A DNA stretch of 64,000 bases from Amphiscolops sp. MND2022 (lineage: Eukaryota). The stretch lies in NCBI GenBank assembly GCA_964187785.1, contig OZ076409.1, positions 20,834,001-20,898,000 on the forward strand, given 5' to 3'. How positions within the stretch are numbered: the stretch's first letter is position 1; every line of letters begins with the position of its first letter. Of the stretch, positions 42,401 to 60,091 are shown in pieces. Position numbers and translations under genes: made by a program. The notes below the pieces were generated by a model. The model searched no databases. It was not told the origin of the DNA and saw nothing but the letters and a program-made list of their open reading frames with translations.

Positions 42401-45400
42401 TATATTTTTGGCAGAAACCCGAAGTCGTCATACTTCATGACGGAAACTTAGATGGTGAAAAAAACCAGACCACATTCTTGCCATACTTTCTGGGGGAGAA
42501 TATTTTCCGTATCTATTTTCATTTCTGAGAAATGTCAGCACTACAAATTGGAAATATTCAGATATTTTTAAATCTCTTTATTTGCGAACGAAAAAAATCG
42601 ACGCCAGTTAGCCCACAGAGCCAAATTAAGAATTGTACAAATTAAGAAACCATGGACTCCGCATTTGGTCGCGGTTCTGAGATATAGGGGATCGATAAAG
42701 GAAAACACTCAAAAATTGCGTTTTTAAAAAAACTTCTGTGCAAAAACATGACCATATGGGCATCTCGCAAAGCTCGAAGCCCCAAAACGGAAAAGAAGGA
42801 CCCTTTGCACTAGTTTAGATGCATTTCCGAAGTTTTCGTTTAGCTGAACAAACTGAACAAGAAATATAGAAATTTGTCGCATTCGCATCTGTCTTGAAGA
42901 AAAATTGAAAAATTAAAAAAGCTATATTTTGTTTTCAGCTATTGGCAGCATTCCCTATTACTCAAAAAAGTTTATGAAAGTCTTTATTGTCTGCCACGTA
43001 TAGTGTACTGAAGTTTCTTACGTGGTTTTCCGTTTGATCATTCCATTGATGCAACAAATTTGGAGGTATCAAATCATTCGCTTTTAACCAGTTGTAACAT
43101 TTATTTAAAGCATTTTTAAAACTTTTTTTCCTGCATCACAGTCCAATGGGTGGTTGCTGGTAAACGACTTTTTGGTTTTCGCCTCGTGTTAAAATCAAAA
43201 TTTATGTTGCAAGTACATCTAGAGTTCCTTGTTGAAGAAAAATATCTGTTTCGTGTGAAACAAATTCAAAACTTTCAAGTAACAGTTAACAAAAATTGAG
43301 AACTTTTTATTGAATCAATTTTTCAATTAATTGTTGATTGACGTGTTTGTTTCTCCGAAGAGAGCTAGCTATTCATCTTCTTTTTTTAAAAAAACGCTGT
43401 CAAAACATGGGTTACAGGAAAGTGATCAAGTTCCACTTCGGGGACAAGATATCTACCAAAGGGGTCCAGACTAACTGCTCTTCCACGTGTGCTTGTGTCA
43501 GCTTCAAGCAGGGACGTGTTCAGATCTAGATAGTTTTTAGATCAATCTAGATCAATCTAGAAATCAATCGTTTCAGGTCTAGATCTAATCTAATTCAGAT
43601 CTAGATCAATCCAATTCCCTGATTTGCTACAATCCTTATCGACACTTGTGACAATATATGTCAATTTAGTCCTAAACAGAGCAGCTATTTGGAATCGAGT
43701 TTGTTTTGTTTTTAGGTATTACCAGTGAACGGGGATCGAACCCTTCGTAGTTCCGTGTTTTTGCGTCAATCCACCTTATTGAATAAGGTGCTCTGCTTTT
43801 TCCCTTCCCCACATGTTTTGAAAAATAAATTTACCCTAGACAAGTTTATTAGATTTTTTTGTAATTCCTGTAACTAATATTCCATTTAATGCGATGACGT
43901 ACTTGTCAAACTTTGTAGAAATATTGAAAAATAATAGAAAATTTACAGCTGATTGAGTTAATTTATGTAACGTTACATAAATTAACTCAATCAGCTCTAA
44001 ATTTTCTATCATTTTTCAATATTTCTACAAAGTTTGACAAGTATGGGTGTCGCAGGCGGCCGCCTGCGATGGCAATTGGTATTCAGTGGCCTTCGGTTAC
44101 GACAGAGTGTTGCCAGGAACGACCCCCCTCAACTAAAGAAGATCAAGAGAGTGGACGCGACAATCGGGCTCAGAAATCAAAGTAAAACAAGATCGAAACT
44201 TTTACAAAAAAAACTATTTTGTGCTATTATTTTCAAACATGTAACTATATCTGTTTAGTGGTTGTGTTATATTAGTTACTTTTCAACATGTAAAATTGAT
44301 CAAATACATTAATAATTGGACACCAAGGCGTACAGGTAGAGGAAATGAGTTCAAATGTTTCCTCTCCTGTCGCTGAGGACGGCCAGTCCGATTATTAATT
44401 TGACCAATCACAGCGCAGTAGTTGATTAATTCATTCATTCTAGTATGGCGCAGTTTTGTATAATCGCCGTACTCGGCCTTTGTTTGTCTGTTTATTCAAG
44501 AGAGATTAAAGGACTGCTAGTCCAACTTGCCAAGCATCGCCTTTAATGCATCAATATATTGGTCCCTTCATGTCGAATTGGACAGTGAGGACGTAAATCT
44601 TTGGCGCTAACAAAGGTACAAGTATATTCATGAAGTGTTGCTATTTCATATTCCCTGGACTTACAGGGCTAATTACCATGCAATTTGTTAGTTGACATGA
44701 AAGGTTAAATATACATGTAAAATATGTAGCGTTGCGTTATTGTTATGTTGAGGAGGTTGCGTCCACATGAACAACTTAAGCCGCCAAGCTTTGATGTCTA
44801 TTTTTAGACCATGATGTTATAACGTGATGCTATTTATAACTTAGTGACTCTAAAAAAAGTCCCATGATGCTCTAAAGTTGAGCTGTCACCCTACCAAGGG
44901 TATATAAACAAGGTACTCGTGGTCCTGTGGACACAATTTTGAGAACCTTCACCGAAAGCAGTATTTTATCCTTTATACACTGTGAACAAGTACTATCAAC
45001 TTTTTGTTGGTAAAGTTTATTGGGATAATTCAAATATTTGCCCAATAGAAACATTTATGCCTTCCACAAGAAGACAGAAAGCTAAAGCTAGGATATCGAG
45101 AGAGTTAGACATGATGTCTGATATAGACAACCTAGACATAATGCTGGGGAATTCAGGAGAAATTTCTATAGAAAGAGAGCTAGCAGATGCAAATGAACAA
45201 TCCTCTGTTCAAGGTGACTACGACGCAAGTGAGTACCGAGGGAACAATTATAGTTTCACACAAGGAAATGAGCCAATTAGACAAAATGAAGTGAGACAAC
45301 CTTTTGAGACTTTTACGAATGAGTTCAATCTTAGATTGTCTCAAGAAATGGATTCCATGATGTCCATTGTCCACAATCAGATAAACAGAGCGATTAGCAC

Positions 45401-48400
45401 TGCTATATCAGAAAGAGTCATTTCAGAGATTCAAAACATTGTTAGCTCAATGTCGTCTTCGGGAAATAGGGACACTGAGGCTAGTATGTCCCCAAGTAGT
45501 CAGGAGAACAAGGAAAACTCATCCGGCTTAAAAACGAAAATAGTGAAAAAGGACTCACGGTCCGTCGGTGATTTGAAAGACACCGCGGGAAGTGGTCACT
45601 ACATGGTGACGGGAGCTAACGAAGCCCAACGGCAGATCCCTGAATTTCTGACTGGACGAATTCACTCAATCCCAAAACTGGAGAGACAACAATCTAACCC
45701 CAATTTCTCTCTGGGCACCACTCTGCCAGCCCCAGTACAAGAGGATCCTGAAACACCCCAGGATCCCCTGCATAGATTGGCCGATGTATTGGTCAACTTG
45801 CAAAATAAACCACAAACGATGACAATACGACCAGTCCAAACCACACCAATGACGTTTGATGGAAAGAGCGAGAAATTCGAACTTTTCGAGGACTTGTTCC
45901 ATACAATGATCAAAATGCAACCCATCATGACAGAGCAAATGAAAATTATTCATTTCCATTCCTTACTCAGGAAAGGGGCTCTGCAGACATTTAGGAACAT
46001 AAACTCGATAAACCGCCAAACGCTTGAGGACGTGCTGGTCATATTCCGGAGGAAATACGTAAAACCGCAATCACAAGCCACGGCAAAACACAAATGGCAT
46101 CGGCTCACTTTTGACCCAAATACCATGAAATTGCCAGACTTCTTACAAGAACTGAACCAGGGCGCAGAAAAAGCCTTTGGTGACAATGCAAAAAGCATGA
46201 TTGACAGCCTGTTGTACGCAAAATTACCAACGAAACTGAAACGATCTGTCAACATGGCCCGTTTAGAGAACGGGACCTACGAAGAGATAGTAGCTCATCT
46301 TGAAAGAAAGCTTGAGCTCAATGCACTAGAAGATTCAGACGACTTACCAATGGCCACCATGGCCTCAGCATCTACCAGTAATAACAATTTGCTGTCCAAT
46401 GGTATAAACACCAATAAGGACGCACAATGCTCTTATTGCAAAGACACAGGCCACTATTATAAGAGCTGCCCCAAACTGAAAAAGAAAAAATAGATGGAGG
46501 ACAAGAATGGCGAAAAACCACAACGTCCGACGTACCCGCCATGTGATACATGTGGGAAAAAGAATCACGCCACAGAACGGTTTTGGCAGGGCGCTGGAGC
46601 ACATCTACGACCCAAGAGGAACAAAGAAAACGATAAAACCAATGATGATTCCAATGAGGACAAAAACCCAAAAAGTCCAACAATAGTGAAACATCAACTT
46701 CAGGCCAATCATTTTCCAAAAAGCCTGAATCAAAAAACTGATTTCGCCACGACTCCAAATAAATGACTACATGTCAGTCCGACAATATGTCATTTCAGAT
46801 CCTCCAATAATAAAATTTCGACAGAATATTAACGACACCAATGGCATCCCGTCTGTTGTCTGGCAGAAACAGATGGAGAAAGCATACATCAAGACCTACA
46901 AAGTAGTACATAATGATCGACCAGACCGTTACTACGACAGAGACTACGCTAAAGACTTCGAGACTCAATTCCGACCCTTACAATTAATTGAAGATTACGA
47001 CCCTCAATATATTGACCCCGAGTACGGAAAAGATCCATACTGGGACGACGATTTATACGATAGACAATCGTTACAATTCTGCCATGATGATTACCCCCCA
47101 ACGGATGATGAGGAAGACCCTGAGATTCCTAATACAAAACTGTCCAGGGCCCTCATAGAACTGTGGCAGACGAAAACTGAAGCACTCCATCAAGAAAACG
47201 CGGAGGAATACCTAGACCAACAAACATATGAATTCGAACCGTCTCTTTTAGACGGAACAGCCTTCTCAAACGTTCTGGTCATAAAGGAAGGAGAACCGGC
47301 GTATAAAGCTCTCTCCACCAACTTGGGCCTTAAATTCAAGAGACGGATGCTGTATTTCCCAATGGATTTCGGAGAACTACCCCTGGACGGCCCGATAGAC
47401 ACTGGGGCCCACTCCAGTGCAATACCGGAAGCAGACTTCAGGAAAATTCGCCTACTGGCACCACAATCCATAGTAAAAGAGTGTCCTGCTCCTTCATTCC
47501 AAATAATGGTCGCAAACGGAGACTTAGAAACTCCGAAAAGCACCGTCGAATTAAAATTCGAAGTGGGAGACATTGAATTCCATGAAATTTTCATAGTGAT
47601 GGAAAAACTGTCTAGCCCCATCATTGGACTGATGTTTCTTCAAAGGAACCACACCGTGCTGGACATGCGCCAAGGTATCCTCAACTTCCCCTACTTTTCG
47701 ATGCAACTAAAAACGGCTGACCACAAATACTCAAATGTGATGGAACCCATCTTCAATCCCGAGGACGTCACAATTCCTCCAAACGATCTTGCGGTCATCT
47801 CGATACAGTCCCAAGTTTATGCTGAAAATGCGGTAACAGGAATATTGCAACCCAGTGATCTACTACATGAAGAAGGAGACGTCACTTTTTGCGCCGCAAT
47901 AGTCACACTACACGAAGGGACTATGAGAATGCATGTCAACAACTTTACAGACCAACCCTACAAAATCAAGAAAGGGTTGCATTTTGCAAACTTTTCGGTG
48001 ATGACTCCCGAGCAGATGAAACATGACAGACCAATAGACCCAGTGTCCACTTGGCATTTACTGAACGAAAATGAAGAAGATGCTGTTTACTACATCATTA
48101 GCCTTCTTAAAGCCAACAGAAATAACGACCAACATGAACAATATTGGTTCCCGACGCCTGAGAACCCAGGAGACGAAGCGTCACATACTCCCATACAGCA
48201 AAGAATTCTCAGGGAACTACGAAGCTTGGAGGAAATCGAAACACTTAACCCCCAGGACAATGAGGAATCTAGACGCAAATTCCTTAGCAATTTTGACTGG
48301 AAGGACTCAATGCTGCAACAACCTGAAATAAAGCAAATAGAAACTCTTTTGATGGAATTCCATGACATTTTCGCTCGCCATAGATTTGATATTGGCGAAA

Positions 48401-51400
48401 ATGAGGAGTTTACAGTCAAATTGACCCCCAAGGATGAATCACCCGCCTATAGCCAGAGCTTGCCTACTCCAATAAATCTTAAAGAAGACATATTGGTTGA
48501 ACTGGCATTACTTCATAAATATGGTATTATAACGACATTACCGTTCTCAAAGTATGCCAGTCCCATTTTGGCGCAGAAAAAACCCAATGGCAAATTGCGA
48601 CTATTAGTTGATCTGAGGATAATTAATAATCTTATTTCAGACGATTATATCAACAACAATCACCCAGTCAGTACTCTAACGGATGCAGCGCAACACATGG
48701 CCGAGAAAAAATTTTTGTGCAAACTTGACTGTTCGCAAGCCTATCACTGTCTTCCTATGGCAGACCAGCGGTCCATCGAAATGCTGGCCTTTAACTTTGC
48801 TAGCAGAACCTTTGCCTATCGAAGACTGGCACAAGGACTCAGTCGAGCCCTTTCGGCCTTCTCCAACTTCATGCGAGAATATTTGGACCGAGTCATTAAA
48901 GCTGATCAATGCGCTCAATATGTGGACGATATCGGCATTGCAGCCAAGGACGCCAATCATCTGATCGCAAATCTCAGGGCTACCTTTGAATGTATCAGAG
49001 AAGCGGGTTCGATATTATCCATGCACAAGTGCCACTTTGGCACTACCGAAATCGACTTTCTTGCGAAAACCATTACCCCTGAGGGAGTAAAACCCCAAAA
49101 GGAGCGAATCACTAACTTCTTAGAAAAAACTAAATTTCCCAAGTCCAAGAAAGCCTTACACTGTTATCTCGGTTTTCTCAACAACTACAGGAACTATATA
49201 CCAAGATTATCCGAGAAACTAGTCCCATTTTTTCAATTGCTCAAAAAGTACCAGAAGGTCCTGGTAACCACAGAATTAGTTGAGCAATTCAACGAAATTA
49301 ATAGAGACTTAGACAAATGCAGCCAATTGGCGCTGAAACAACCCCTGCCGAACAAACAACTAGTCCTTATGACTGACGCAAGCTTTACGGCAGCCGGTTA
49401 CGCCATATTGACTGAAGATGACCCTAATCAGAAATTCACATCTGTCAAAAAGTCCTATGCGCCCATTGCATATGGATCAAAAACTTTTACTCCTTCTCAG
49501 CTCAAAATGTCGATATATGCAAAGGAGTTTCTAGCCATATATTACGCATTTAAGGAGTTTGGACATATTTTCTGGGGAACACCACAACCAGTAATTATCC
49601 TCACAGATAATAAATCGGTCACGAGGTTCTTCCAGACCAAGATCATACCACCGCCACTCTGGAATGCTTGTGATTTTGTAATTCAATTCAACTTCATCAT
49701 AGCTCATATTCCAGGCAAAAACAACACAGCGGCGGACTACTTGTCCCGTATGGAAATGGACCCTACTGAAAAGCTAGTCCTGAAAATACCAGAGGATGTT
49801 GAAACTCGACCGATCGAAGTCAATGTCCAATCCGCCGGAGTCTCTGAAGAAGAACAGGTCTTCTTTACCGAAGAAGACAGCGAAACCGAAGAACAGATTT
49901 GGGAAAGAAAACAGCAATCCAGAAAGGGACTCATGGTCCCTGAGACAGTGATTCAAATTGATTCCATTTCAGAAAATACGGTAGAGGAAATCACCAATTT
50001 CACCCAAAAACTGAGAAGAACGAATCAGATACTGCTCGAGCAATCCAAGGACCCAATTTTGCTCCAATTGAAGGCAGAAATTCAGAAAGAAGAATACTCT
50101 GAAGAAATCCTTCAACAGGACATTCGGTACAAATATTATTTGATCAATATCGACCGAATAGTCCTCAAGGACGAAATAGTGACACGACAGTATTATGATG
50201 AAACGGGACAAATCAAACATCACCAGATATTATTACCAAAACATCTAGTTCGAGAATTATTACAAGCAATACATGGCACGGCACATCGACACCCAGGAAT
50301 TTCCAAAATGCTACAGGAGATTCGCCAAAAGTACTACTACCCTGGAATCGCTAAACATGTCAAAAAAATGGGTAGATGGCTGTGAAATATGTGCCAGGGA
50401 CAAACGGGTCCCTAATACGTTAATTACCCCGGAAATACTGAATTTGCCTGAATGGGACCTTGGGCCAGAAGATGCCATGCAAATTGAGCTGTTACCAAAT
50501 TTACCAACTAGTTGCGGATACCAGACAGTAATGACAGCAATAGATGTGTTTTCCAGATATCTATTTGCCTACCCGCTAATTGAGGCAACAGCCCCAAATG
50601 TGGCCAAGGTGACAATTGATATAAAGACAAAACACTCATATTTGCCGACAACCCTCATCACAGACAAGGGGTCCGCATTTACTTCAACAATTTTAGCGGA
50701 AATCACTGCAATTTTGGGCAACTACAAAGCATCCGCAAACTATTGGCAAACTTGAAAGGACACACGCCTCCTTGAAGACCAATCTGAAGATGGCCTCAGG
50801 GGAATATCGACGCCAATGGCACAAGTGTTTGCCATTAGCTGTGCTCAACTATAACACTACTTATCACTCTAGTATTGGATGTGAGCCAAGCAAAGTTTTC
50901 CATGGCCGAATTCCCTACAATGTCCTTGACCACAAACTAGGAAACAATCCTAATAAAAACATCCTACCAACAACTGACTTCGGGGAAGAGTCACAGCAGA
51001 GAACAAAAATCCTCATTGATCAAACGAAAAAGAATATCATGCAGTCGTATTTAAAGTACAAAGAGTATTCGACCGCAAGGCCAAGGCGACTCCACTACAG
51101 GAGAAAGACTACTGTTTTGTCCTTCAACCGAAAGCGGATAGTCAAGGCTCCAAAATACCATTTAGGGACTTCCGATGGATTGGTCTTTTTATTGTTCAAA
51201 AAGTCTTGCTAAACAACAATTACATAGTGCGTCGTCTAAATACGAACAAAACGCAGATCTTACATCGTATTAGACTCAAAAAATTTGTCCCAAATACCCC
51301 ATTGGAGGACAAATATACGCTAGAAAAATCACAACCGGACGACAAAATAATATTACTGCAAGACGATCTGTATACTATTGCATGGGAAGCCGACTTTGAG

Positions 51401-54400
51401 TACGAGCTGTTTGAACCGAGAAAAAATGATTGGTCCGACACGGACACGCGCCTATCAAACGATGCCGCGAGCGGCGAAGTGGACTATTACGTCAACGAAG
51501 ATGAACGCAGCAGCACGAACGACGATGAACGCAGCAGCGGAAAGAACGAAAATGACGTCACCGAAAATGAAATACGACCGAGATCGGCCAGCAGCCGTAA
51601 CGCGTCGTCCCTTCTGAATGAATCGCCTAGTTGGACGGAAAATGGAAATGACGTCACTAACGAAGTAAATGGCGATGTAAATGTTCCAAAAAGGGGCGCA
51701 GATATCACCGTGCCCGGAACATCGGAAAATGAAAAATCTGAGGAAAACTTGAGCCCTAGAGGAGGGAAATACAAACTTCGACCTAACCCCAACCCCAACT
51801 TTTCTGATGAATATAGATACTAGTCAGATATGTAAATTAAGGGTCCCACAAAGGCCTTTCGATTACCATATCTTTTTACTGGGACTATTCTGACTATATA
51901 TGAAAATATACATGAAAACTGGAACAAAAGACACAACAACATATAATACAATAGATGCCAAAGAATCACAACTATAAGTTTACACAAGGAGCAACTAAAA
52001 ACAAATGTACATTATGTACATTTAGTGCTTACTGGACCCCTGCTGTAATTCCTTAATAGTTTTGTCAATCTCCGAGGAAGGAAGATTGCCGAAATAGGCG
52101 AACTTGGTAGACTTCCCGGGTGAAGAAAAAGGAGTTCCTCCTGCCTCACTTGGCTCCGAAGACTGAGCGAAATGAACTGCCCTAGCCGTCCCAGCTCCCG
52201 AAATTTCAACTTTGAATGCAGCAAGGAGTTCTTTATGGATAGAGGACTGCCCAAAGGAATCTACATGGGACCAAGGGTCCCCAGAGACATTCCCAGACGA
52301 GAATTTGGCCTCAAGAAGATGATAGCGTGTTAGTGCAGCCTCAGTGACACAATCGTTTACTGACCCAGGAACGTAAGCGAGGTAAGCCTGAGCAGGAAAC
52401 AAAACATCTGACAAACGGCAAAGAACGTCGGAAGAATCCGCAGAATGAAATTTGATGGCAGGAAGAGAAGTGCTAATTTCCGTCAAACATACACAACTAA
52501 GACGGAAAAGATGGAATAAATGTGGACGTGTATAAAGTGCGGGCATGCCAGTTAGCAAAGTAACGACGTCTCGAATAAGATCAGGAGAACTGATAAGATC
52601 AGGATAAAGGTTTCGGAAGTCATCAACAAATCCAACGTACTCGTCTCGGCATTCGGGTGCGGAGCTTTCGTCGACCCATCCTCGCAACTGGAAAGTGCTG
52701 AATAGAGACGAGAAGCAGAATAGAACCTGGTCCATAGGCTGCGAAGAAAGGACTGTTGGGTCAAAGGATGCCATTCCCCTCACAATGTGAGCAGTTAAGC
52801 GAATGTCTCCTAAGAGAGACTCTATAATGTTGACGACGGAAGCACGGGCCTGACTGATAAATCCTTCTCTCGCATTCTCGGCAAGTTTATCGACGGCAGC
52901 CAATTGCTCTTTCTTTCCCCCAGTGTCCTTCTTAGCCTTCTTGTAGGAAAGAGAATCTATGTCCGACTTCAACTTCAGGCTCAGAAGAAAGTCCCTACTG
53001 GACAGCTGACGAACGCCTTCCAACTGTAACTGCATCAACCCAGACCAGTCGGTGTCCACTGGGGTGATTTTTGGCAATAAAGATCGCTGGCACAGCTCAC
53101 GAATGTAGCGGCAGATTTCTCGTCTAAATAAACAAAACTCGGTCAATTACAAACTGAGCACCCAATAAATAAGCCTTATGATTGGGACCTTCATGTTGTG
53201 ATGGAGCTGACAAATCTCGAAGAAAGACTCTAACCAACCCCTAATCCTAGAAGTATGTTAAGCAAAAGAATGGTCAGACTAACAATCGCGGACTAAACGT
53301 CCGAAGAGCTCGATCTTTAAGGGGAAGAACATGTCGTTGACGATCATCCAGTCCAGACTCTGCGGCTATAACAGAAGACAATCAACGAAGTGATGTAAGG
53401 AACAACTTGGACTGTGGCTACCTCCTGACCTACTATACGACAACTACGTAGTAACGAACCGAAAAGTACTAACTTTTCCTTTAACTCCTTGCATGACTTG
53501 TGTGGGAGCCTTCATAGTGAGGTAGTCCAGAACTTCTTGCCAAGGATGAGTCAATTCAGTGCATATGCCCGGGATGTTCCTTAGTTCGAAGCTGGATGCC
53601 TCGATCGCCTATTAAAAAGTTACTAGTGTCGACCTGCCGTAGAAGGAGGACAAAACACAGGTAAAGAACTTCCTTACCTTCGTTAGTTCTGGTGCCTCGA
53701 GAGTCCAGGGCTCAGTCAGGATGCCGCTCAAGAATACTATCAGGTATCGGAGCTGAGAAAAGAAGTCTATAGGACCGAAGACGCTTCCTCCTTCCTGGTA
53801 CATTAAGGTCTGTAAGGACATCACGTCAAACCTGAAGGGGTATTGGATCCCATGTGGGAACATTCCACAATTGTCTAGAGTGCGAACCAAAGCGGCCGGA
53901 CATCCAGACACGCTGACGAGGCCTTGTTTAGTGGAAATGGCAGATAGCAGTCGGGAGATCCCTGCAACATAGGTCTGTGGGAACCCAGCGGATAAAGGGC
54001 AGCGGAACAAAGGCATGCGGACAAGGGATTCCTCCTTCCAGAATCGTACACTCATCACCTGACTGCGGCCGATTACTTCAAATTCTAGCGCATACATGTC
54101 ATTAGAGACGATATGGCTAGACAAGTCTTCAATGCTTCAGGTGAAGATGTGTTGGAAAATGACCTAAAGTAAGAAAGACGAGAAGAGTTTACTTATGAAA
54201 CAAAAACATCTTGAAAGAGAAGGGGAATCAAAGTACGTACGGTCAAGGTAGCGGAACTCCAATCGAAAGGGGAAAATTGTTCCTTGTGGTTCATATATTT
54301 CCCCACTCTAGACCATAGTGATTGTAGCAAGAGGATGTTGCCGTCGTGAGGGATGAAACTGCCAATGAGATCTATCTGGGCACTTGCCCGTTGGTCCTCA

Positions 54401-57400
54401 GTGGTTTGCTGGCTTCCTGTATTGGCGATATAGTCATCATAGAAGGTGAACTTCTCTCCTACATTGACAAGAGGGGCATTTTCGAAATAAGGCTTCTCCC
54501 GTTCCAGCTCAAGAGGAGTCAGTACGTGGCCATCTCTCCCTCGGACCTGATGCTGTGTGATCCCAGTTATTTGGTCATTAACGCCAAGGTGTTGAAATCG
54601 CCAACGCTGGTCTTTCCTCAGGTGTGACTCACCCTGGTAATGCGTGATGATTTCTCTTGCCCCTTTTGAATAGATGGACACGTTCGTCTTACAGATTTGG
54701 CAGTAGAATTTGTGTTGATTATGTGCTGGGTCGAGGGGTCCGGTTACGAAAGTTTTCGTCCATTTGATGCCTTTAAAGTGAGCCTCTTTCATGACGTTTC
54801 CTGGCTTGGTGGCAACTCGTCGACGCTTTGCTGGGGGTTTTGAAGTTTGACGTTTACCTGCTGTCTTGGGTTTTAGCCGAGACAGTGGCGCTCAGTCCTC
54901 AATACTGTAACCGCTCCCAGGACTAGCAAGCATCATGGGTCCGGTGTCTTCTTGTGGGCTTGTTTTCTTACGGGGAGTAACCACTTGTGGGGACTGGTCG
55001 AATTCAATCTGTAGATCTAGGCTCCCAGGGTCTTCATCGGAGTTGAATGCCCCGCTTGTGTACCCATCGCTGGATAGGTCAGTTTCATTGCATTCCCCAC
55101 TGGAACTAGAACCAGAATCAGGATGTGGTGTTCCAGCCCGTCTCACATGTCGACAGCGTTCCTTGGTGATGACCTTACCATCGGCGGCCTGCAAGAGTAA
55201 AGATTTCATCAGGTGGAAAGATGAAAGAAGCGACTCGTCAGAAATGGTCCGTAGGATAGTGTGGATTTGGCCTTCGCTAAAGGCGACGACTGGATGGCCA
55301 ATGGGTAACTTGATTGGACGATTCTCTGTAAAACGTTTCCGAAGCGCCGCTCTCCCACTAATTGACAACTGTCGCGGTTGCGTCGGTGTGGACTTGGTGG
55401 GCTCAGGTGAGTCCATGATAGGATCCGCAGAGGCGTTTGGAGCCTGGACAATCTCTTCTTCCTCCTCTTGGGAAGAGGAAGGGACCGTGAAAAAGCCAGA
55501 GCTAACCCCACGTAGCACAGGACCACTAACTCCTGACCCGTCCAGTAAATCCTCGACTTCGCTCGCGTCAGTGGAATACAAATCTTGGACCGTAGGTCTT
55601 GGGGCAGCTTTACGATCATCTTGCTTCTCCTCTTTTTCGCCTGAGGAATCCAATATCTTGCCGTCAGTCTTGGTCTGGATTTCGGTACTCGGGGGACGTC
55701 TTGGCGTGACTTCAATTGTGCAAGACTCAGATTCCTTATGAACAGTGTCATTAGTTGTGGAGTTTTCGACCTGGGACGTAGGGACGAGTGTTGGGTCAGC
55801 GACAGTACTGTCTCGTTGGGCAATAGCTGCCACAGTTCGTTCAGCATATGCTGATAAACTTTCAGAATTGGAACCACTTGAGGCAATCGATGGAGGGCGA
55901 TCAACGGTTACATCCTCTTTTGGATTAGTATCCTTAGACGCTTCACTAGTAGCCTGCAACTCAGGGACTTCTTTACAAGGATTCTCAGGGACTGTATTCT
56001 CAGATGACGCCATGTCTAAATTGATACAACACTGATATTAGCAGTGAACTTCCTGTACGAACCAAAAACCGCATAAAAAGTCTTCCGGAAGCAGACAAAC
56101 TTGAACACTTGTGAACACTTGTGTTATTTGGACAGGAAGTACGTGAATGAAATGAGAGCCCTGATCAAGCCTCAGATTAATTCAAAGTTTTCAAGATTCA
56201 TAGAATACGGAAGTCTACTGACCTGAGTGATTGCAAAGACGAGCCCAAGTTGATTCCAGAACCTGTAGTGCAATAGACGATAGAGGGTAGTGAATTGCGG
56301 AATGTGACTGTTGGGAACGCCCTGGTGACGTGGACAGGATGTCAAAGATAAGCAGAATTCAGTATGTCCTTGGCGGTTAAGGGATCAGCAGACAAAGCGT
56401 CCAGAATATGGTGTAAAGTAAATTCAAATGCGTACGACTGAAGGACTAGATACAAATGGTAACTAATAACTAAACAATACTAGCGAGGAAGTACTTGATG
56501 GAAATTGAATGTAAAAGCAATAGAATGGTGAACCAACAATTTGACAAAATGTCGAGATTGGAGTTCGTAGCTATACAGTTTGGTGTCAAATTTACAATTA
56601 CCTACAAGTTACGCTATTATTTGATAAAGACTGCCAGCTATATCTACATTATTTTACATTATTCCCAAAACTTTGTTATTCTATGCAATTAATCCATTAT
56701 TTTATAATTATTTTCATTATTTCACCATTTTATTTCATTTCATATTATTTTCAAGGTCATATTATTTTATTCCTTATAAGGATTTACGGCCTTGAATCGC
56801 CATTTTACGAATGAAATCTAAATCACGAAATCTGATTGGCTATCATGGGGAGGACGAGACAGCGTGGCCTTCGGGCGTATCTTCACCTACTTAAAACCTT
56901 CAAGTGGGTCATGAGTGTTAATAAACACTCATCTTGATGCTTAAGAAATGAGAGTGGTGTTGAGGGCTACGGGTGTCAACATTGCCGCTGTCGGTAATTT
57001 CAAAGTGATCAGAGCAGCTAGTTGAAAGAATGTTACCCGGAAAATTTTGTTATTGAAAAATACCTCAGAAACGAAAAGGGAAACCCGGGAAAACACAAAC
57101 CGAGAAACAACGAGACACAGCGATCCGACAAGGAGAGGATCGCCTTTATTGCAATTTCAATTAATCAGATCAGTTGCTCTAGAAACTTTGTTTTAATTTG
57201 AAATCCTCACTTCTCCGAAATTGCCAAAAAACTGTTAAAAGACAGGTATATGTCTGATATCTCTGAGACAATTCCAATGGATTTCCAAGGCGCTGCTCAA
57301 TCAGAAGGGGCCCGGGCAATTATATGCATTTCTAGTGATGAGGAGAAAATGATGGACTCAGACTGTGGGTACTCGGTGGACGATTTGTACTTATCGTCGG

Positions 57401-60091
57401 AAGAAGAATCAACAGATGTAGAAATCATGGCTAGATGCATCGAGAGACAGCTAACTGAGCCAATTGCTATTCCCAACTCCGGGACATCAAGTACGCAAGT
57501 TAGGTGTGGGACACCTAAACCAAGCTTCCCACCTTTTCCTACATTCTCTCAGCAGTTTTTTAAGCTGGGTTGGGGAAATGGACCGGTAGGACGAGATACC
57601 CGAGTCAAGGCCACTCACCCTATCAACATTTGTAGGGACTTACGCCCTATGATTGATACGCCAATGTCGCCTCCCCCAGAGGACAGAGGGCCGTCCTGTA
57701 TGCAAGAGACGCCAACTTGCTCGTATTTAACGGACACTGCCTCAATCGAAACAGTTGCGAACCACTTTGACGGCATGGCTTTATCCGAGTGCGCTGGCCT
57801 TGCAGGCTGTTCAGATTTGCGTAATTTGCGGGAAATCGGTCCAACAAATTCAAGCGGAAACAGTCAATGATTACATTGATAAGACTGTCGTGCCGGGTGA
57901 AACCCTTGCGTGCGGAAACTGAGAGGAGGAAAAGGGCCTTTCTGGACGGGATGGCTGCTGGCACATTTTTACTCATGCCAGGGGGAGTGTCGCAGGCGGC
58001 CGCCTGCGATGGCAATTGGTATTCAGTGGCCTTCGGTTACGACAGAGTGTTGCCAGGAACGATCCCCCTCAACTAAAGAAGATCAAAAGAGTGGACGCGA
58101 CAATCGGGCTCAGAAATCAAAGTAAAAAAAAGATCGAAACTTTTACAACAAAACTATTTTGTGCTATTATTTTCAAACATGTAACTATATCTGTTTAGTG
58201 GTTGTGTTATATTAGTTACTTTTCAACATGTAAAATTGATCAAATACATTAATAATTGGACACCAAGGCGTACAGGTAGAGGAAACGAGTTCAAATGTTT
58301 CCTCTCCTGTCGCTGAGGACGGCCAGTCCGATTATTAAATTGACCAATCACAGCGCAGTAGTTGATTAATTCATTCATTTTAGTATGGCGCAGTTTTGTA
58401 TAATCGCCGTACTCGGCCTTTGTTTGTCTGTTTATTTAAGAGAGATTAAAGGACTGCTAGTCCAACTTGCCAAGCATCGCCTTTAATGCATCAATATATT
58501 GGTCCCTTCATGTCGAATTGGACAGTGAGGACGTAAATCTTTGGCGCTAACAAAGGTACAAGTATATTCATGAAGTGTTGCTATTTCATATTCCCTGTAC
58601 TTACAGGGCTGAATACCATGCAATTTGTTAGTTGACATGAAAGGTTAAATTTACATGTAAAACATGTAGCGTTGCATTATTGTTATGTTGAGGACGTAGC
58701 GTCCACATGAACAACTTAAGCCGACAAGCTTTGATGTCTATTTTTAGACCATGATGTTATAACGTGATGCTATTTATAACTTAGTGATTCTAAAATTAGT
58801 CCCATGATGCTCTAAATTTGAGCTGTCACCCTAGCAAGGATATATAAACAAGGTACTCGTGGTCCTGGGGACACAATTTTGAGAACCTTCACCGAAAGCA
58901 GTATTTTATCATTTATACACTGTGAACAAGTACTATCAACTATTTGTTGGTAAAGTTTATTGGGATAATTCAAATATTTGCCCAATAGAAACATTTATGC
59001 CTTCCACAAGAAGACAGAAAGCTAAAGCTAGGATATCGAGAGAGTTAGACATGATGTCTGATATAGACAACCTAGAGATAATTCTGGGGAATTCAGGAGT
59101 AAATCCTATAGAAAGAAAGCTAGCAGATGCAATTGAACAATCCCCTGTTCAAGGTGACTATGAGGCAAGTGAGTACCGAGGGAACAATTATAGTTTCACA
59201 CAAGAAAATGAGCCAATTAGACAAAATGAAGTGAGACAATCTTTTGAGACTTTTACGAATGAGTTCAATCTTAGATTGTCTCAAGAAATGGATTCCATGA
59301 TGTCCATGGTCCACAATCAGATAAACAGAGCGATTAGCACTGCTATATCAGAAAGAGTCATTCCAGAGATTCAAAACATTGTTAGCTCAATGTCGTCTTC
59401 GGGAAATAGGGACACTGAGGCTAGTATGTCCCCAAGTAGTCAGGAGAACAAGGAAAACTCATCCGGCTTAAAAACGAAAATATTGAAAAGGACTCACGGT
59501 CCGTCGGTGATTTGAGAGACACCGCGGGAAGTGGTCACTACAATGGGAACCGCAAAAACTTCAGATTGCTCTCGATTACGAGTAAGAGTTTTTAGGACAT
59601 AACTAGCCGGTGATCTCTGCGCCTCTTTTGTTGTTAAATTGCAACTAATTGCTCACATGCTTTGTCTCTGTATTAAATTCATGTACTTCTGAACACCCCT
59701 GCCCTATACCTGGAAACAGTACTACGCCAAGAAGATAATGAACTCCAATATGGTTGTCGTGTCTCTTCTGAAGGATGGCGGAGTGCAATGCGAAAACTGC
59801 AACGATCGCCACCCAGACCGACTCACCCTTGCAGACGAGTTTTACAAGTTTGAGGACAAAAAAGGCGGCTCCATTCAGAAAAATGGGAAACCAGTTAAGG
59901 AGTATAAAGTCAACACTTGCAACTACGTGGCTCGCGCCGAGAGGTCTCAGCAAAAAGACTGTTTTGATTCGTATGACTTGGAGAAACCTCTTTTCAGCCA
60001 TGATTGCAACTCTCATTCTTTATGCCAACCAAACGTTGGGTTAATCATCGCTCTACTTTTGTATCTTCTGCTGTGTCTTTCCAGAGTATAG
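6267..60091 (+). CDS. cacna2d: Voltage-gated calcium channel alpha2delta-like subunit, full gene span (16 exons, about 1202 aa)
   Basis: Exons join in phase and sum to 3609 nt. Family motifs appear in order: VNTQHSQVLIPSDV, YMYFATTSGAVRLYPA, YDVRF..SY..PKMVVIAIDSSGSV (MIDAS), ATNQNK, LTDGG, LPCSANGYFY, LLGVSSVDV, CYFLDEGGFIV, KKIMNSNMVVV, DCFD..HDCNS, then a hydrophobic tail. Confidence 0.88.
7890..9600 (+). pseudogene. Decayed viral/retroelement envelope (class I fusion-like) glycoprotein gene
   Basis: KRRTR (8216-8230) is followed directly by hydrophobic ALPLAAVAIGAI*LFGTG. A Cys-containing ectodomain remnant (GIWFVLS..YPGCRI..IRSDLELC in ORF 8842-9285) and a TM-like segment ILIMGLTSSLLSMLLHLLFMYMII (about 9478-9550) follow. 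Many stops and frameshifts; boundaries approximate. Confidence 0.65.
12269..12780 (-). mobile_element. HINE-like repeat copy (another diverged copy at about 11400-11975)
   Basis: AACAAG...TCGGCGCCATATCTAAGGCTCAAAA at the left end and CGCCGACTAAAA at the right end. Confidence 0.65.
13923..14073 (+). CDS. cacna2d: alpha2delta-like exon 2
   Basis: tag|GTG acceptor; helix VFTMDDDLTDLTSLKNAMQMRLQQSEKAASAIRFASE; inferred phase-1 GC donor AAAG|GCTGGT. Confidence 0.7.
14470..14609 (+). CDS. cacna2d: alpha2delta-like exon 3
   Basis: ttttgcag acceptor; ...TFTQDTSYRYYNKVNTQHSQ; CAG|GTCAGT donor. Not present in the ORF track. Confidence 0.85.
15427..15595 (+). CDS. cacna2d: alpha2delta-like exon 4 (VWA_N/Cache)
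   Basis: VLIPSDVHYC...ILWTRSLNDLY...YMYFATTSGAVRLYPAS; cag acceptor, G|GTTCGC donor. Confidence 0.9.
15633..16442 (+). mobile_element. HINE-like repeat copy
   Basis: TTTAGTCGGCGG start; GGCGCTGACTTTGGCCGTTCCCG..GGCTTGTT end. Confidence 0.65.
17018..17299 (+). CDS. cacna2d: alpha2delta-like exon 5 (start of VWA, MIDAS DxSxS)
   Basis: YDVRFQQSY..PKMVVIAIDSSGSVNG..ILETLSDSD; tttag acceptor, G|GTTAGT donor. Confidence 0.92.
17515..18221. mobile_element. Candidate solo LTR (707 bp)
   Basis: GC-richer block bounded by a perfect 7-bp inverted repeat TGTAACG...CGTTACA. Only a 3-bp flanking match (TTG), not a clean 4-6 bp TSD. Confidence 0.45.
18234..18380. repeat. 147-bp near-perfect palindrome made of two head-to-head HINE-like termini
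   Basis: TGGTAACAAGTCGGGACC...GTAGCC-G-GGCTAC...GGTCCCGACTTGTTACCA, centred at 18307. Confidence 0.9.
18520..19119 (+). mobile_element. HINE-like repeat copy
   Basis: CTAGTCGGCGC start; GGCGCCGACTTGAGACGTTCCCGTCTTG end. Confidence 0.6.
19157..19361 (+). CDS. cacna2d: alpha2delta-like exon 6 (VWA)
   Basis: ATNQNKQAFRN...ANFELMFDEA...CLKYLIVLTDGG; taag acceptor, AG|GTTAAT donor. Confidence 0.9.
19450..20040 (-). mobile_element. HINE-like repeat copy
   Basis: AACAAGGCGGGAACGACTCAAGTCGGCGTCATATCTAAGG end; the body matches the split copy at 24241-27212. Confidence 0.65.
20320..20885 (-). mobile_element. HINE-like repeat copy with a duplicated terminus
   Basis: AACAAGCCGGAAACGGTTCAAGTCGGCGCC end; CGCCGACTAAAA occurs twice (about 20824 and 20873). 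Confidence 0.65.
21280..21400 (+). CDS. cacna2d: alpha2delta-like exon 7 (end of VWA)
   Basis: PEVRLAYFLEG...LPCSANGYFYK; tttttag acceptor, AAG|GTTCGT donor. Not present in the ORF track. Confidence 0.88.
21916..22009. repeat. Hairpin inverted repeat (about 40-bp arms)
   Basis: GATTCCTACAAAAATCTCACAACCTATCGGAAAAAA ... TTTTTTCCGATAGGTTGTGAGATTTTTGTAGGAATC. Confidence 0.85.
22200..22446 (+). CDS. cacna2d: alpha2delta-like exon 8 (Cache)
   Basis: WSNLH...VMTVGMPVYN...LLGVSSVDV; ttag acceptor, G|GTAGGA donor. Confidence 0.9.
22824..23075 (+). CDS. cacna2d: alpha2delta-like exon 9
   Basis: GNLLLLNSKGSVVF...EILELE; G|GTTAG donor. An alternative in-phase acceptor exists at 22845. Confidence 0.75.
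23769..24038 (+). CDS. cacna2d: alpha2delta-like exon 10
   Basis: DMQYVASVTEVRYSWSRL...; gtag acceptor, A|GTGAGT donor; phases fit both neighbours. Confidence 0.8.
24241..27212 (+). mobile_element. HINE-like repeat copy split by a LINE insertion (halves 24241-24586 and 27047-27212)
   Basis: The two halves are contiguous in the uninterrupted copy at 19450-20040 (AAAAACGTTTAATGAGCCTAAA on the minus strand). Confidence 0.75.
24587..27046 (-). mobile_element. 5'-truncated CR1/L2-type LINE (RT domain, C-terminus, 3' UTR, (TAA)n tail)
   Basis: ORF 25922-27088 has NYRPISLL, QFGFR, FLDLKKAFETV, GVPQGSILGP, LFADDT; ORF 25277-25813 is the C-terminal region. Tail at about 24587-24603; near-exact TSD GTT(C/T)AAT at 24580-24586 and 27047-27053. 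Confidence 0.92.
27474..27659. mobile_element. Small TA-flanked Tc1/pogo-like MITE remnant
   Basis: TA|CCGTA...GAATAGAAGTCGC at the left and GCGGCCTCTATTC...GAAATACGG|TA at the right. Confidence 0.45.
27761..27974 (+). CDS. cacna2d: alpha2delta-like exon 11
   Basis: ttctag acceptor; FYPVIR..IYCPGL..VYEFL..GCKQ..LIYD; AG|GTAATT donor. Confidence 0.8.
29401..29953 (+). mobile_element. Best-preserved HINE-like copy with an internal tRNA-like cassette; followed directly by a second copy from about 29953
   Basis: 5' TTTAGTCGGCGC; 3' GGCGCCGACTTGG-GCCGTTCCCGGC-TTGTTT; A box 29558-29568, B box 29609-29619. Confidence 0.75.
30905..30980 (+). CDS. cacna2d: alpha2delta-like exon 12 (tentative)
   Basis: The only candidate I found that bridges a phase-2 donor (27974) to a phase-0 acceptor (38434): gcag|A LYDKNRSATAASCSKYSCRQTMQNQ|GTCTCA. 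No family motif supports it. Confidence 0.45.
31050..38240 (+). mobile_element. Heavily degenerate Ty3/gypsy LTR retrotransposon; LTR pair not recognisable, boundaries approximate
   Basis: Coiled-coil Gag-like ORF 31371-31895; CFNCGQRDHFAREC knuckle at about 32548; protease-like GLIVTGS..FLLGRNFL (33270-33540); RT (SPWA, LRFC, DAYPLPRID, MPFGMCNS, YIDD; 34239-34969); RNase H (TDAS, VDNQAL, RNAD; 35150-35520). Most of the integrase is missing. Confidence 0.88.
38434..38610 (+). CDS. cacna2d: alpha2delta-like exon 13
   Basis: tttag|AELNEQASFIKFSSGLLVVREP...HTQ|GTTAGT; resembles the Cache 'F.gT..Gl.R' strand; phase 0/0. Confidence 0.65.
38864..39011. repeat. Imperfect long inverted repeat
   Basis: CCTGTTTCAAAGTCTCCAGCAGAATCAAAATTCAATTCTATTCGT ... 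ACGAATAGAATTGAGTTTTGATTCTGCTTGAGACTTTCAGACAGG. Confidence 0.8.
39480..40126 (+). CDS. cacna2d: alpha2delta-like exon 14 (distal Cache, alpha2/delta linker)
   Basis: ccag acceptor; AVSGIFL, CFSKEITCYFLDEGGFIV, GANLYSKDPCLMRQLVHDGIYK, CSC; inferred GC donor CAAAG|GCAGCG. Confidence 0.85.
41517..41810. repeat. Minisatellites: about 3x (GCTCCGTACGTATTAAGATTAGGCATAGCT core) and 2-3x (TGACGTCACAAAAATCATTC)
   Basis: Direct repeats visible at about 41535, 41594, 41642 and at 41706, 41732, 41787. Confidence 0.75.
43418..43496 (+). CDS. cacna2d: alpha2delta-like exon 15 (delta)
   Basis: tacag|G KVIKFHFGDKISTKGVQTNCSSTCAC|GTCAGC; phases fit exons 14 and 16. Confidence 0.75.
43521..43610. repeat. Low-complexity (AGATCT/TCTAGA/GATCAATCTA) microrepeat
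   Basis: Repeated ATCTAGATC and AATCTAG words. Confidence 0.6.
43900..44043. repeat. 144-bp loopless palindrome abutting the gypsy insertion
   Basis: Centre TGTAAC|GTTACA at 43971/43972; 72-bp arms with 2 mismatches by eye. Confidence 0.92.
44048..45603 (+). repeat. 5' LTR (1556 bp)
   Basis: Direct repeat of 57988-59542 with about 45 differences by hand count (about 97% identity); CCAAT at about 44404 and TATATAAA at 44901. Confidence 0.95.
45057..46741 (+). pseudogene. Gag (starts inside the LTR; capsid-like region and two zinc knuckles)
   Basis: ATG at 45057 (MPSTRRQKAK); TFDGKSEKFELFEDLF; CSYCKDTGHYYKSC and CDTCGKKNHATERF. In-frame TAG at 46491 and an inferred 1-nt loss near 46670; the inferred original end is SKN* at 46741. 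Confidence 0.88.
45604..45618 (+). other. Primer-binding site (priming tRNA not identified)
   Basis: TGG-initial sequence TGGTGACGGGAGCTA immediately after the LTR-terminal CA. Confidence 0.75.
46738..51823 (+). pseudogene. Pol: aspartic protease, dUTPase-like spacer, RT, RNase H, integrase (integrase frameshifted)
   Basis: IDTGA at about 47395; YASP..KLRLLVDLR; QYVDD at about 48916; MTDAS, AKEFLA, LTDNK, TAADYLSR; H..H..C..C, IDVFSRY, ITDKG, LERTH across ORFs 46771-50385, 50273-50755, 50772-51212 and 51206-51823. Confidence 0.93.
52022..56013 (-). pseudogene. Spliced antisense cargo gene of the gypsy element: acidic/Ser-rich N-terminus, NLS, BED-like zinc finger, hAT-transposase-like body
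   Basis: ORFs 54892-56013 and 54193-54792 are one frame split by a single TGA; PAKRRRV; FYCQIC..H....H. GT-AG introns 54240-54164, 53677-53609 and 53473-53366 join all pieces in phase with ORF 52022-53146, with several remaining in-frame stops. Confidence 0.75.
56014..57249. promoter_or_regulatory. Putative internal bidirectional promoter region of the element
   Basis: Non-coding gap between divergent ATGs (56013 minus, 57250 plus); AT-rich tract at about 56690-56780 and CTGATTGGCT (inverse CCAAT) at about 56832. Confidence 0.4.
57250..58076 (+). pseudogene. Sense accessory ORF overlapping the PPT and 3' LTR; unknown function
   Basis: ORF 57250-57870 (IICISSDEE, acidic) continues through two inferred frameshifts into VQICVICGKSVQQIQAE... 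and ETERRKRAFLDGM...GTIPLN* (stop at 58076, inside the LTR). Confidence 0.6.
57980..57987 (+). other. Polypurine tract
   Basis: AGGGGGAG directly before the TG of the 3' LTR. Confidence 0.8.
57988..59542 (+). repeat. 3' LTR (1555 bp), containing a duplicate of the Gag N-terminus (ATG 58997)
   Basis: Matches 44048-45603; ends CACTACA followed by the TSD ATGGG. Confidence 0.95.
59720..60091 (+). CDS. cacna2d: alpha2delta-like exon 16 (delta C-terminus, GPI-signal/TM-like tail)
   Basis: aacag|YYAKKIMNSNMVVV..CENC..TCNY..DCFD..HDCNS..LIIALLLYLLLCLSRV*. Confidence 0.85.
   Translation, partial: YYAKKIMNSNMVVVSLLKDGGVQCENCNDRHPDRLTLADEFYKFEDKKGGSIQKNGKPVKEYKVNTCNYVARAERSQQKDCFDSYDLEKPLFSHDCNSHSLCQPNVGLIIALLLYLLLCLSRV

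Follow-up and report, generated by a model that had tools for sequence, protein, structure and literature searches.

The long terminal repeats (LTRs) of retroelements are, by working rule, non-coding, with gag beginning after the primer-binding site (PBS), and annotation pipelines use this rule to set LTR limits, to mask repeats and to call gag genes. The LTR open reading frame (ORF) of mouse mammary tumour virus (MMTV), sag, and similar frames lie in the unique 3′ region (U3), end at a stop codon of their own and are expressed from mRNAs of the 3′ end. Murine leukemia virus makes glyco-Gag beside its normal Gag, using an upstream CUG start that lies downstream of the PBS and outside the LTR. 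The closest described layout is that of Ty1 and Ty2 of Saccharomyces cerevisiae (Ty1/copia, Pseudoviridae), in which the Gag AUG is placed in the 5′ LTR, downstream of the transcription start, and heads an ORF that runs through the end of the unique 5′ region (U5). The PBS of Ty1 lies within the GAG ORF (PMC4974528) and can be changed only by synonymous substitutions; the LTR measures 334 bp, the 5′ untranslated region (UTR) is formed by RNA nucleotides 1–53 and the PBS by nucleotides 95–104 (PMC5454406). An earlier, sequence-only reading of the locus studied here took it as established that Gag starts downstream of the PBS; in view of Ty1 this holds as a rule but is not universal. Here we describe an LTR retrotransposon in a 64,000-nt stretch of the genome of Amphiscolops sp. 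MND2022 (assembly GCA_964187785.1, contig OZ076409.1, positions 20,834,001 to 20,898,000, forward strand), referred to as the window throughout, whose layout breaks the rule. Very probably, gag of this element starts about 183 codons inside the LTR and runs in a single frame through the LTR end and a tRNA-Leu PBS, on an mRNA expected from a TATA-box promoter about 120–130 nt upstream of the gag ATG. The principle is known from Ty1; it is extended here in scale and superfamily and is not a new kind of system.

The ATG at position 45057 opens a frame of 478 codons, of which 182 (45057–45602, 546 nt) lie within the 5′ LTR. Codon 183 is an ATG composed of the last A of the LTR and the TG that begins the PBS (CAC TAC A/TG GTG ACG, the slash marking the LTR end); the translation reads ...Y-M-V-T-G-A-N, and the peptide spanning the LTR/PBS junction is ...GSYMVTGANEAQ.... 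The sequence-only reading had reported that the frame is open across this junction, and the sequence confirms it. It had also reported that the coding block recurs in the 3′ LTR from the ATG at 58997 and ends exactly at the target-site duplication (TSD): the DNA block does so, but the open frame stops after 172 codons, shifted by a 1-nt deletion at 59485. Wrongly placed LTR limits, or a partial duplication of gag, were considered and rejected. On the left the repeat stops exactly at the PBS; on the right it begins after the polypurine tract (PPT) and stops exactly at the TSD. Its left limit is identical in five of six further, young elements, in which the alignment of the 5′ LTR ends on the base before the family PBS TGGTGACAGGAG; the alignment of the sixth, L071, stops 373 nt short.

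The element is a Ty3/gypsy-type LTR retrotransposon (Metaviridae) with the order protease (PR), reverse transcriptase (RT), RNase H (RH) and integrase (IN) and with the expected LTRs, PBS, PPT and Gag features, a placement made from Pfam domains and domain order at the level of the Ty3/gypsy type as a whole. The 1204-residue pol ORF matches an aspartyl protease (residues 199–292), RVT_1 (603–765), RT_RNaseH/RT_RNaseH_2 (835–958) and Integrase_H2C2 (1156–1200), and rve falls in the next piece of pol. Gag has a CCHC zinc knuckle, CSYCKDTGHYYKSC, and a DUF1759 match of 18.5 bits, below the Pfam cut-off of 25.4; P0019, at 23.3 bits, is likewise below it, and the domain is precomputed as PF03564 in several relatives. 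Membership in Ty1/copia (Pseudoviridae) was rejected, as RT stands before the integrase domains.

Two features of the Ty1-type layout, a gag ATG upstream of the LTR 3′ end and one frame with gag through the PBS, are found here. The element is like Ty1 in its LTR-internal gag start, the position downstream of the transcription start being a prediction in our case, and is not a Ty1 member. Whereas Ty1 has about 41 nt of GAG in the LTR (about 14 codons), an LTR of 334 bp and an element of 5.9 kb, the present family has 544–550 nt of gag in the LTR (181–183 codons, a whole conserved domain and 13 times longer), LTRs of 1.5–2.1 kb and elements of 15.4–16.4 kb. Ty1 places IN before RT, whereas the order here is PR-RT-RH-IN with Ty3/gypsy-type Pfam domains, and Ty1 is primed by tRNA-iMet, in contrast to tRNA-Leu(CAG) here. 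Like glyco-Gag, the extra N-terminal Gag segment is encoded in what would otherwise be leader; unlike glyco-Gag, it starts within the LTR itself, and scanning would be expected to yield the long form. With MMTV sag the element shares protein-coding sequence within the LTR, but in our element this sequence is found at the LTR 3′ end and, having no stop, reads on over the PBS into gag. We rejected a U3 accessory ORF of the sag type, since the frame has no stop in the LTR, runs into gag and lies downstream of a conserved TATA box. In open-access full text (including passages of PMC13524379) we found no Ty3/gypsy element described as having a gag start far inside its LTR, Repbase-type family descriptions being outside that scope.

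We searched the genome (1.07 Gb) with the DNA of 45057–45602. The search gave 3111 first-look candidates; 40 were scored, and 39 of these were near full-length matches of 84–97% identity besides the query's own place. For the subfamily of the window we compared 30 fetched copies, intact or not, chosen by similarity within the ORF itself. Diversity at the three codon positions of the gag frame was 0.061/0.048/0.135, compared with 0.127/0.161/0.134 and 0.142/0.111/0.127 in two control stretches of U3. The ratio of nonsynonymous to synonymous divergence (dN/dS, Nei-Gojobori) was 0.21 in frame, with the other frames giving 1.06 and 1.34; it was 0.75 and 0.91 in the two frames of the U3 control that could be computed. 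Nucleotide diversity was 0.05–0.12 in the ORF versus 0.12–0.17 in U3. The LTR frame is intact in 11 of the 30 copies. Copies decay once inserted, while what distinguishes the lineages from one another still bears the mark of a protein. Codon-level conservation across copies had been proposed as the test of the sequence-only reading, with neutral accumulation of stops and indels as the outcome that would speak against it. Such decay is found in single old copies and not at the level of the family, which keeps its coding signature.

A 200-residue query across the junction (Gag residues 101–300) gave 12,637 first-look candidates. The 150 that were scored cover query residues 1–200 with one exception (2–200), and 143 have no stop, the other seven having one each. 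In sister subfamilies, 17 of 30 fetched junction loci hold an intact gag of 560–562 residues that starts with MPST... at the LTR-internal ATG. Among these 17 ORFs, dN/dS was 0.125 for the LTR part (dN 0.064, dS 0.516), 0.071 for codons 86–183, 0.023–0.032 for the gag core and 0.070 for the gag C-terminus. The proposal that the 3′ part of the LTR, the att bases and the PBS are under coding constraint is borne out by the ratios of 0.21 and 0.125 and by a junction frame kept in 143 of 150 copies and in distant families.

We then took six young sister elements with 20 kb of context. Their LTR pairs are 98.8–100% identical, with whole LTR alignments of 1533–2055 nt in five, and their gag ATG lies 544–550 nt inside the LTR; the five with whole LTR alignments are 15.4–16.4 kb long. 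In L067 the LTRs are 100% identical and flanked by the target duplication CCGGC, which indicates that the family moved very recently. Because the young sister elements have the same layout, it is the working design of a large young family and not a quirk of the window copy. More distant relatives were sought with residues 1–182. Among 498 candidate database proteins, 226 matched at E ≤ 1e-3; of the 120 listed, most are fusions of 560–562 residues. A search of 1.84 billion representatives gave 484 matches, 176 of them at E ≤ 1e-10. Seven of 11 fetched representatives (36–82% identical) lose similarity right after ...PY/SY/SH, that is, at the LTR end, as expected of a 3′ or solo LTR whose frame runs on into flanking DNA. 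A distant match, P0200, continues ...PYMVTGVNDTQ...EFLTGRIH, the 5′ junction of a distant family. Since homology ends at the LTR end in distant relatives, the LTR has kept its end at the same codon over the whole traceable range of the domain. Relatives with as little as 36% overall identity still share the N-terminus MPSTR.QKAK.

A TATA box lies 135–170 nt upstream of the gag ATG in all 28 related leaders, the rest of U3 being barely alignable between subfamilies, and transcription would be expected to start about 25–35 nt downstream of it. The leader that follows is free of ATG over at least 140 nt in 21 of the 28 copies and over 95–100 nt in the other seven. Six of seven LTRs have no ATG in the 150 nt before the start, compared with 3–4.6 per 150 nt further upstream. 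Between the LTR-internal start and the junction ATG there are 13–17 further ATGs. Upstream of the TATA box, by 40–120 nt, all seven LTRs compared have two to four YTAWWWWTAR motifs (for example CTATTTTTAG and CTAAAAATAG), and at least one stands at a similar distance in each of the 28 related leaders (including L061–L071 and L031–L060); the first ~650 nt of the window U3 (44048–44700) have none. We take YTAWWWWTAR to be the MEF2 binding consensus. If these putative motifs are MEF2 sites, the family may have a tissue-specific promoter of muscle or neuronal type. As for the poly(A) signal, AATAAA is absent from the whole window LTR, whose sole ATTAAA (44505) is in U3, upstream of the TATA box; no poly(A) hexamer is conserved in position across seven LTRs, and AATAAA occurs at +326 in four of seven subfamily representatives. 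A block AATTYAAAT (about 45027–45035 in the window) stands 30–33 nt before the ATG in 27 of 28 leaders; at a guess, it could be an unusual poly(A) signal that places the border between the repeat region (R) and U5 just before the ATG.

Selection on a single frame across the LTR/PBS junction implies that one transcript must carry both parts, so that the genomic RNA has to begin within the 5′ LTR, ahead of ATG 45057. In the mechanism that we propose, the mRNA would come from the conserved TATA-box promoter and start at about the distance given above, 120–130 nt upstream of ATG 45057. R and U5 would then span about 670 nt and be mostly coding, and minus-strand strong-stop DNA would copy N-terminal gag codons. 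With 13–17 ATGs ahead of the junction ATG, a scanning ribosome would make the long form, in which the 182 LTR-encoded residues would be an N-terminal Gag domain. The last U5 codons and the PBS would carry a double load of protein and cis-acting signals, and each 3′ or solo LTR would carry a promoter, a leader, an ATG and about 183 codons, followed by flanking DNA.

The junction itself bears on this double load. Over the 17 intact ORFs, synonymous diversity is 0.04–0.05 at alignment columns 181–204, spanning the final LTR codons, the PBS and some 20 codons beyond, compared with 0.16–0.37 over most of the LTR part. It stays at 0.04–0.12 over columns 145–228 (about 45490–45740 in the window), with its minimum at the junction, and the low values set in some 40 codons ahead of the LTR end and persist for some 45 codons past the PBS. 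The synonymous divergence (dS) is 0.112 for the PBS and the next codons and 0.28–0.52 elsewhere. In this sample of 17 related sequences the dip is suggestive and agrees with a double use of these bases, in codons and in replication signals. It suggests that RNA or DNA signals (att, the PBS and perhaps structures for primer activation or packaging) overlie the coding sequence near the junction. The att site (the last U5 bases), the PBS and nearby cis signals must also evolve under the protein code, and the family is a natural test case for replication signals that share bases with a code, the synonymous dip being a first sign.

Read as its complement, the family PBS, TGGTGACAGGAG, matches the 3′-terminal 12 nt of tRNA-Leu(CAG) plus CCA; the window copy has one mismatch. 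A tRNA-Leu(CAG) gene with the 3′ end ...CCCACTCCTGTCA (also given as ...GTGGGTTCGAATCCCACTCCTGTCA) lies at L083:1444-1525 and was the sole tRNA gene in seven loci scanned. A first, shorter tRNA pattern had given 1013 forward and 60 reverse matches, mostly PBS sites of other elements and copies of tRNA fragments, and ARAGORN found no tRNA gene in eight loci of that pattern. Elsewhere in the genome, G000:C8:35594000-35682000 (L094–L100) holds a dense array of hundreds of exact 25-nt 3′ ends of tRNA-Leu(CAG), with a frequent spacing of about 296 nt. ARAGORN found no tRNA gene in the two loci of the array that were scanned (L094 and L097), and the array may be a tRNA-derived tandem repeat or a degenerate tRNA gene cluster. 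At L073 and L078 (G000:C1:7329091 and C1:26586404) a genomic tRNA-Leu 3′ half is followed by CCA (...GCGTGGGTTCGAATCCCACTCCTGTCA-CCA...). tRNA genes do not encode CCA, so these look like reverse-transcribed pieces of tRNA, such as remnants of primer tRNA linked to retroelement DNA, or a tRNA-derived short interspersed element (SINE).

The frame in the LTR might be a product of chance or already in decay, with Gag truly starting at the junction ATG (45603–45605). That ATG is in frame and present in every copy, because it is forced by the CA end of the LTR and the TGG of the PBS, and the stops and indels in the LTR frame of many old copies (19 of 30) would agree with such a view. The comparative data, as we read them, already contradict it and make it scarcely credible: dN/dS is 0.21 and 0.125 in frame compared with about 1 or more out of frame, the third codon position is as variable as U3 whereas the first and second are about two to three times less so, 17 of 30 loci keep the full ORF of 560–562 residues from the LTR ATG, the MPSTR.QKAK start persists down to 36% identity, and 13–17 ATGs stand ahead of the one at the junction. 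The sequence-only reading had raised another origin for the start, a spliced leader in which the AG at 45047–45048 (CCCAATAG, 45041–45048) is the acceptor that joins an upstream exon to gag. A short pyrimidine-rich run does precede this AG in the window and its closest relatives, but the hint is lost on comparison: only four of 28 related leaders have an AG there, and it is absent in four of seven aligned subfamily representatives, other subfamilies reading ...CTCTTGCAACAATC... or ...CTCTAGTACAAC.... The in-frame stretch upstream has a stop and no ATG, and an ATG-free leader directly after a conserved TATA box needs no splicing. We consider an acceptor at this site highly improbable.

Another possibility is that the LTR segment acts mainly as a protein of its own, released from Gag by the protease or made from 3′ and solo LTRs, instead of remaining a lasting N-terminal domain of the capsid protein. 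Its pattern of conservation is distinct, variable at residues 31–85 and conserved over a block at 86–180, and a low-complexity stretch joins it to the DUF1759-type Gag core. ORFs of about 180–250 residues from solo and 3′ LTRs are numerous in databases, and the 3′ LTR ORF is open to the LTR end in five of five young elements. However, the junction frame is kept in all families seen, which a stand-alone product would not need, and neither a stop codon nor a conserved poly(A) signal closes the LTR-only ORF. As the main role of the segment this is distinctly unlikely; it is compatible with gag starting inside the LTR as an added layer.

Several points weigh against a gag start inside the LTR. The start context is weak, with T or C at −3, and seven of 28 leaders have an extra ATG between the TATA box and the start, 95–100 nt ahead of the latter. 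From the TATA box to the LTR end, no canonical AATAAA is conserved anywhere. The LTR ORF is broken in 19 of 30 copies of the window subfamily, and the window's own copy is dead, with a TAG in gag, a fragmented pol and a frameshifted 3′ LTR ORF. An AlphaFold2 model of the 478-residue Gag, from a 12-row alignment, was too poor to be informative on the N-terminal domain (mean predicted local distance difference test score 37.6, predicted TM-score 0.19). The copies compared are in part non-independent: L015 and L018, like L019 and L020, share flanks and look like single insertions assembled twice, and L025–L029 belong to a segment present twice. We predict the transcription start, the poly(A) site and translation from sequence evolution only.

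Two observations concern the assembly around such copies. Contig C830 repeats a stretch of C1 (34.60 Mb), as judged by the identical flanks of L015 and L018 and of L019 and L020, and is probably an uncollapsed haplotype. At C2:57.48-57.55 Mb (L025–L029), identical flanks likewise reveal a duplication of about 53 kb that takes in a whole element. Some of the copies counted in this genome are therefore not independent.

In an alignment of 12 sequences, the N-terminus of Gag, residues 86–180 and the junction ...SY-MVTGA... are conserved, whereas residues 31–85 are variable. From its N-terminus, which is basic (MPSTRRQKAKARKSRE), the segment passes through a variable acidic stretch to a conserved block (FETFSNEFNLRLSQEMDSMM...IPEIQNI); a Ser-rich linker follows, then a basic tail (KKDSRSVGDLRD) whose last residues, at the LTR end, are PY or SY. 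Against Pfam the window segment gave only chance-level matches (E 0.045 or worse), against sequences of the PDB matches at E 0.18 or worse, and a Protein Atlas search with it returned no usable match. A conserved domain of about 183 residues sits in a repeat of thousands of copies, with the consequence that solo LTRs are called as 'genes' of 180–250 residues in databases, while a gag annotated from after the PBS would be truncated. The sequence-only reading had suggested that every 3′ or solo LTR could express an N-terminal Gag fragment. As ORFs these fragments do exist: stand-alone frames of about 180–250 residues that run into flanking DNA, many of them in databases; no closing stop codon or conserved poly(A) signal was found for the LTR-only ORF.

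A bolder reading, which we think unlikely, is that U5 would in effect be a protein-coding exon and R little more than a 5′ UTR, with thousands of 3′ and solo LTRs as units of promoter and ORF that make free Gag N-domain. If it were true, the free N-domain could act in trans on particle assembly, as a copy-number control like p22 of Ty1, or on the host, and the element would leave a regulator gene each time it recombines to a solo LTR. As the family is large and young, with one LTR pair 100% identical and many intact ORFs, mapping of transcripts and peptides in the host should be feasible.

The window element is defective. An in-frame TAG at 46491–46493 (codon 479) cuts its gag, and same-frame homology to the relatives of 560–562 residues goes on after it. 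Its pol consists of 1204 residues and fragments (split pieces at 50273–51212), compared with 1689–1721 residues in intact relatives. Its LTRs align locally with 1516 matches and 42 mismatches (97.3%, the alignment running a few bases past the LTRs), with three 1-nt indels inside the LTRs. At 2.7% LTR divergence it is an old member of the family, of which much younger intact copies lie elsewhere. The features of the locus are collected in Table 1.

Table 1. Features of the window element, in window coordinates, and accessory ORFs of L101, in the coordinates of that locus.
Feature	Position	Strand	Remarks
LTR retrotransposon, 15,495 bp	44048-59542	+	LTRs, TSD, PPT and PBS present
5′ TSD, ATGGG	44043-44047	+	same 5 bases at 3′ side
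5′ LTR, 1556 nt, TGTCGC...CACTACA	44048-45603	+	last base A 45603
Two MEF2-like YTAWWWWTAR motifs (putative)	44798-44807, 44830-44839	+	upstream of TATA box
ATG-free stretch, 187 nt, TATA box and predicted 5′ UTR	44870-45056	+	no ATG, versus ten in 44715-44869
TATA box TATATAAA, predicted core promoter	44901-44908	+	28/28 related copies
gag ORF as found in the window, 478 codons	45057-46493	+	weak DUF1759, CCHC knuckle
LTR-internal gag part, 182 codons and first base of codon 183	45057-45603	+	N-terminal Gag domain, no known family
PBS TGGTGACGGGAGC, read as (M)-V-T-G-A	45604-45616	+	adjoins 5′ LTR
pol, in pieces	46771-50755	+	1204-residue ORF (PR, RT, RNase H, integrase zinc domain), then 160-residue ORF (integrase core)
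Accessory ORFs, window	52022-56013	-	
Accessory ORFs, window	57250-57870	+	
PPT CCAGGGGGAG	57978-57987	+	directly 5′ of 3′ LTR; same motif there in relatives
3′ LTR, 1555 nt, TGTCGC...CACTACA	57988-59542	+	
gag-start copy in 3′ LTR	58997-59515	+	stop after 172 codons; 1-nt deletion shifts frame
3′ TSD, ATGGG	59543-59547	+	same 5 bases at 5′ side
Accessory ORF, L101	1275-2459	-	
Accessory ORF, L101	2921-3409	-	
Accessory ORF, L101	3515-5329	-	
Accessory ORF, L101	6519-7358	+	

About 6 kb with opposite-strand ORFs separate pol from the 3′ LTR in the elements examined for ORFs. The accessory ORFs have no Pfam family match and only a weak C2H2 match, and a Protein Atlas search with the 604-residue antisense ORF gave weak zinc-finger leads only (score 0.84). 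Antisense ORFs have reportedly been described for Retand elements of plants; a search of the open-access literature on antisense ORFs found no animal family of such build. An antisense ORF of 594–637 residues and a sense ORF of 264–279 residues are present in five of five elements, an antisense ORF of 394 residues in three of five (248–250 residues in the other two) and one of about 160–210 residues in three of five. The large accessory ORFs stay open despite strong divergence between subfamilies, with dN of 0.36–0.51 and saturated synonymous sites.

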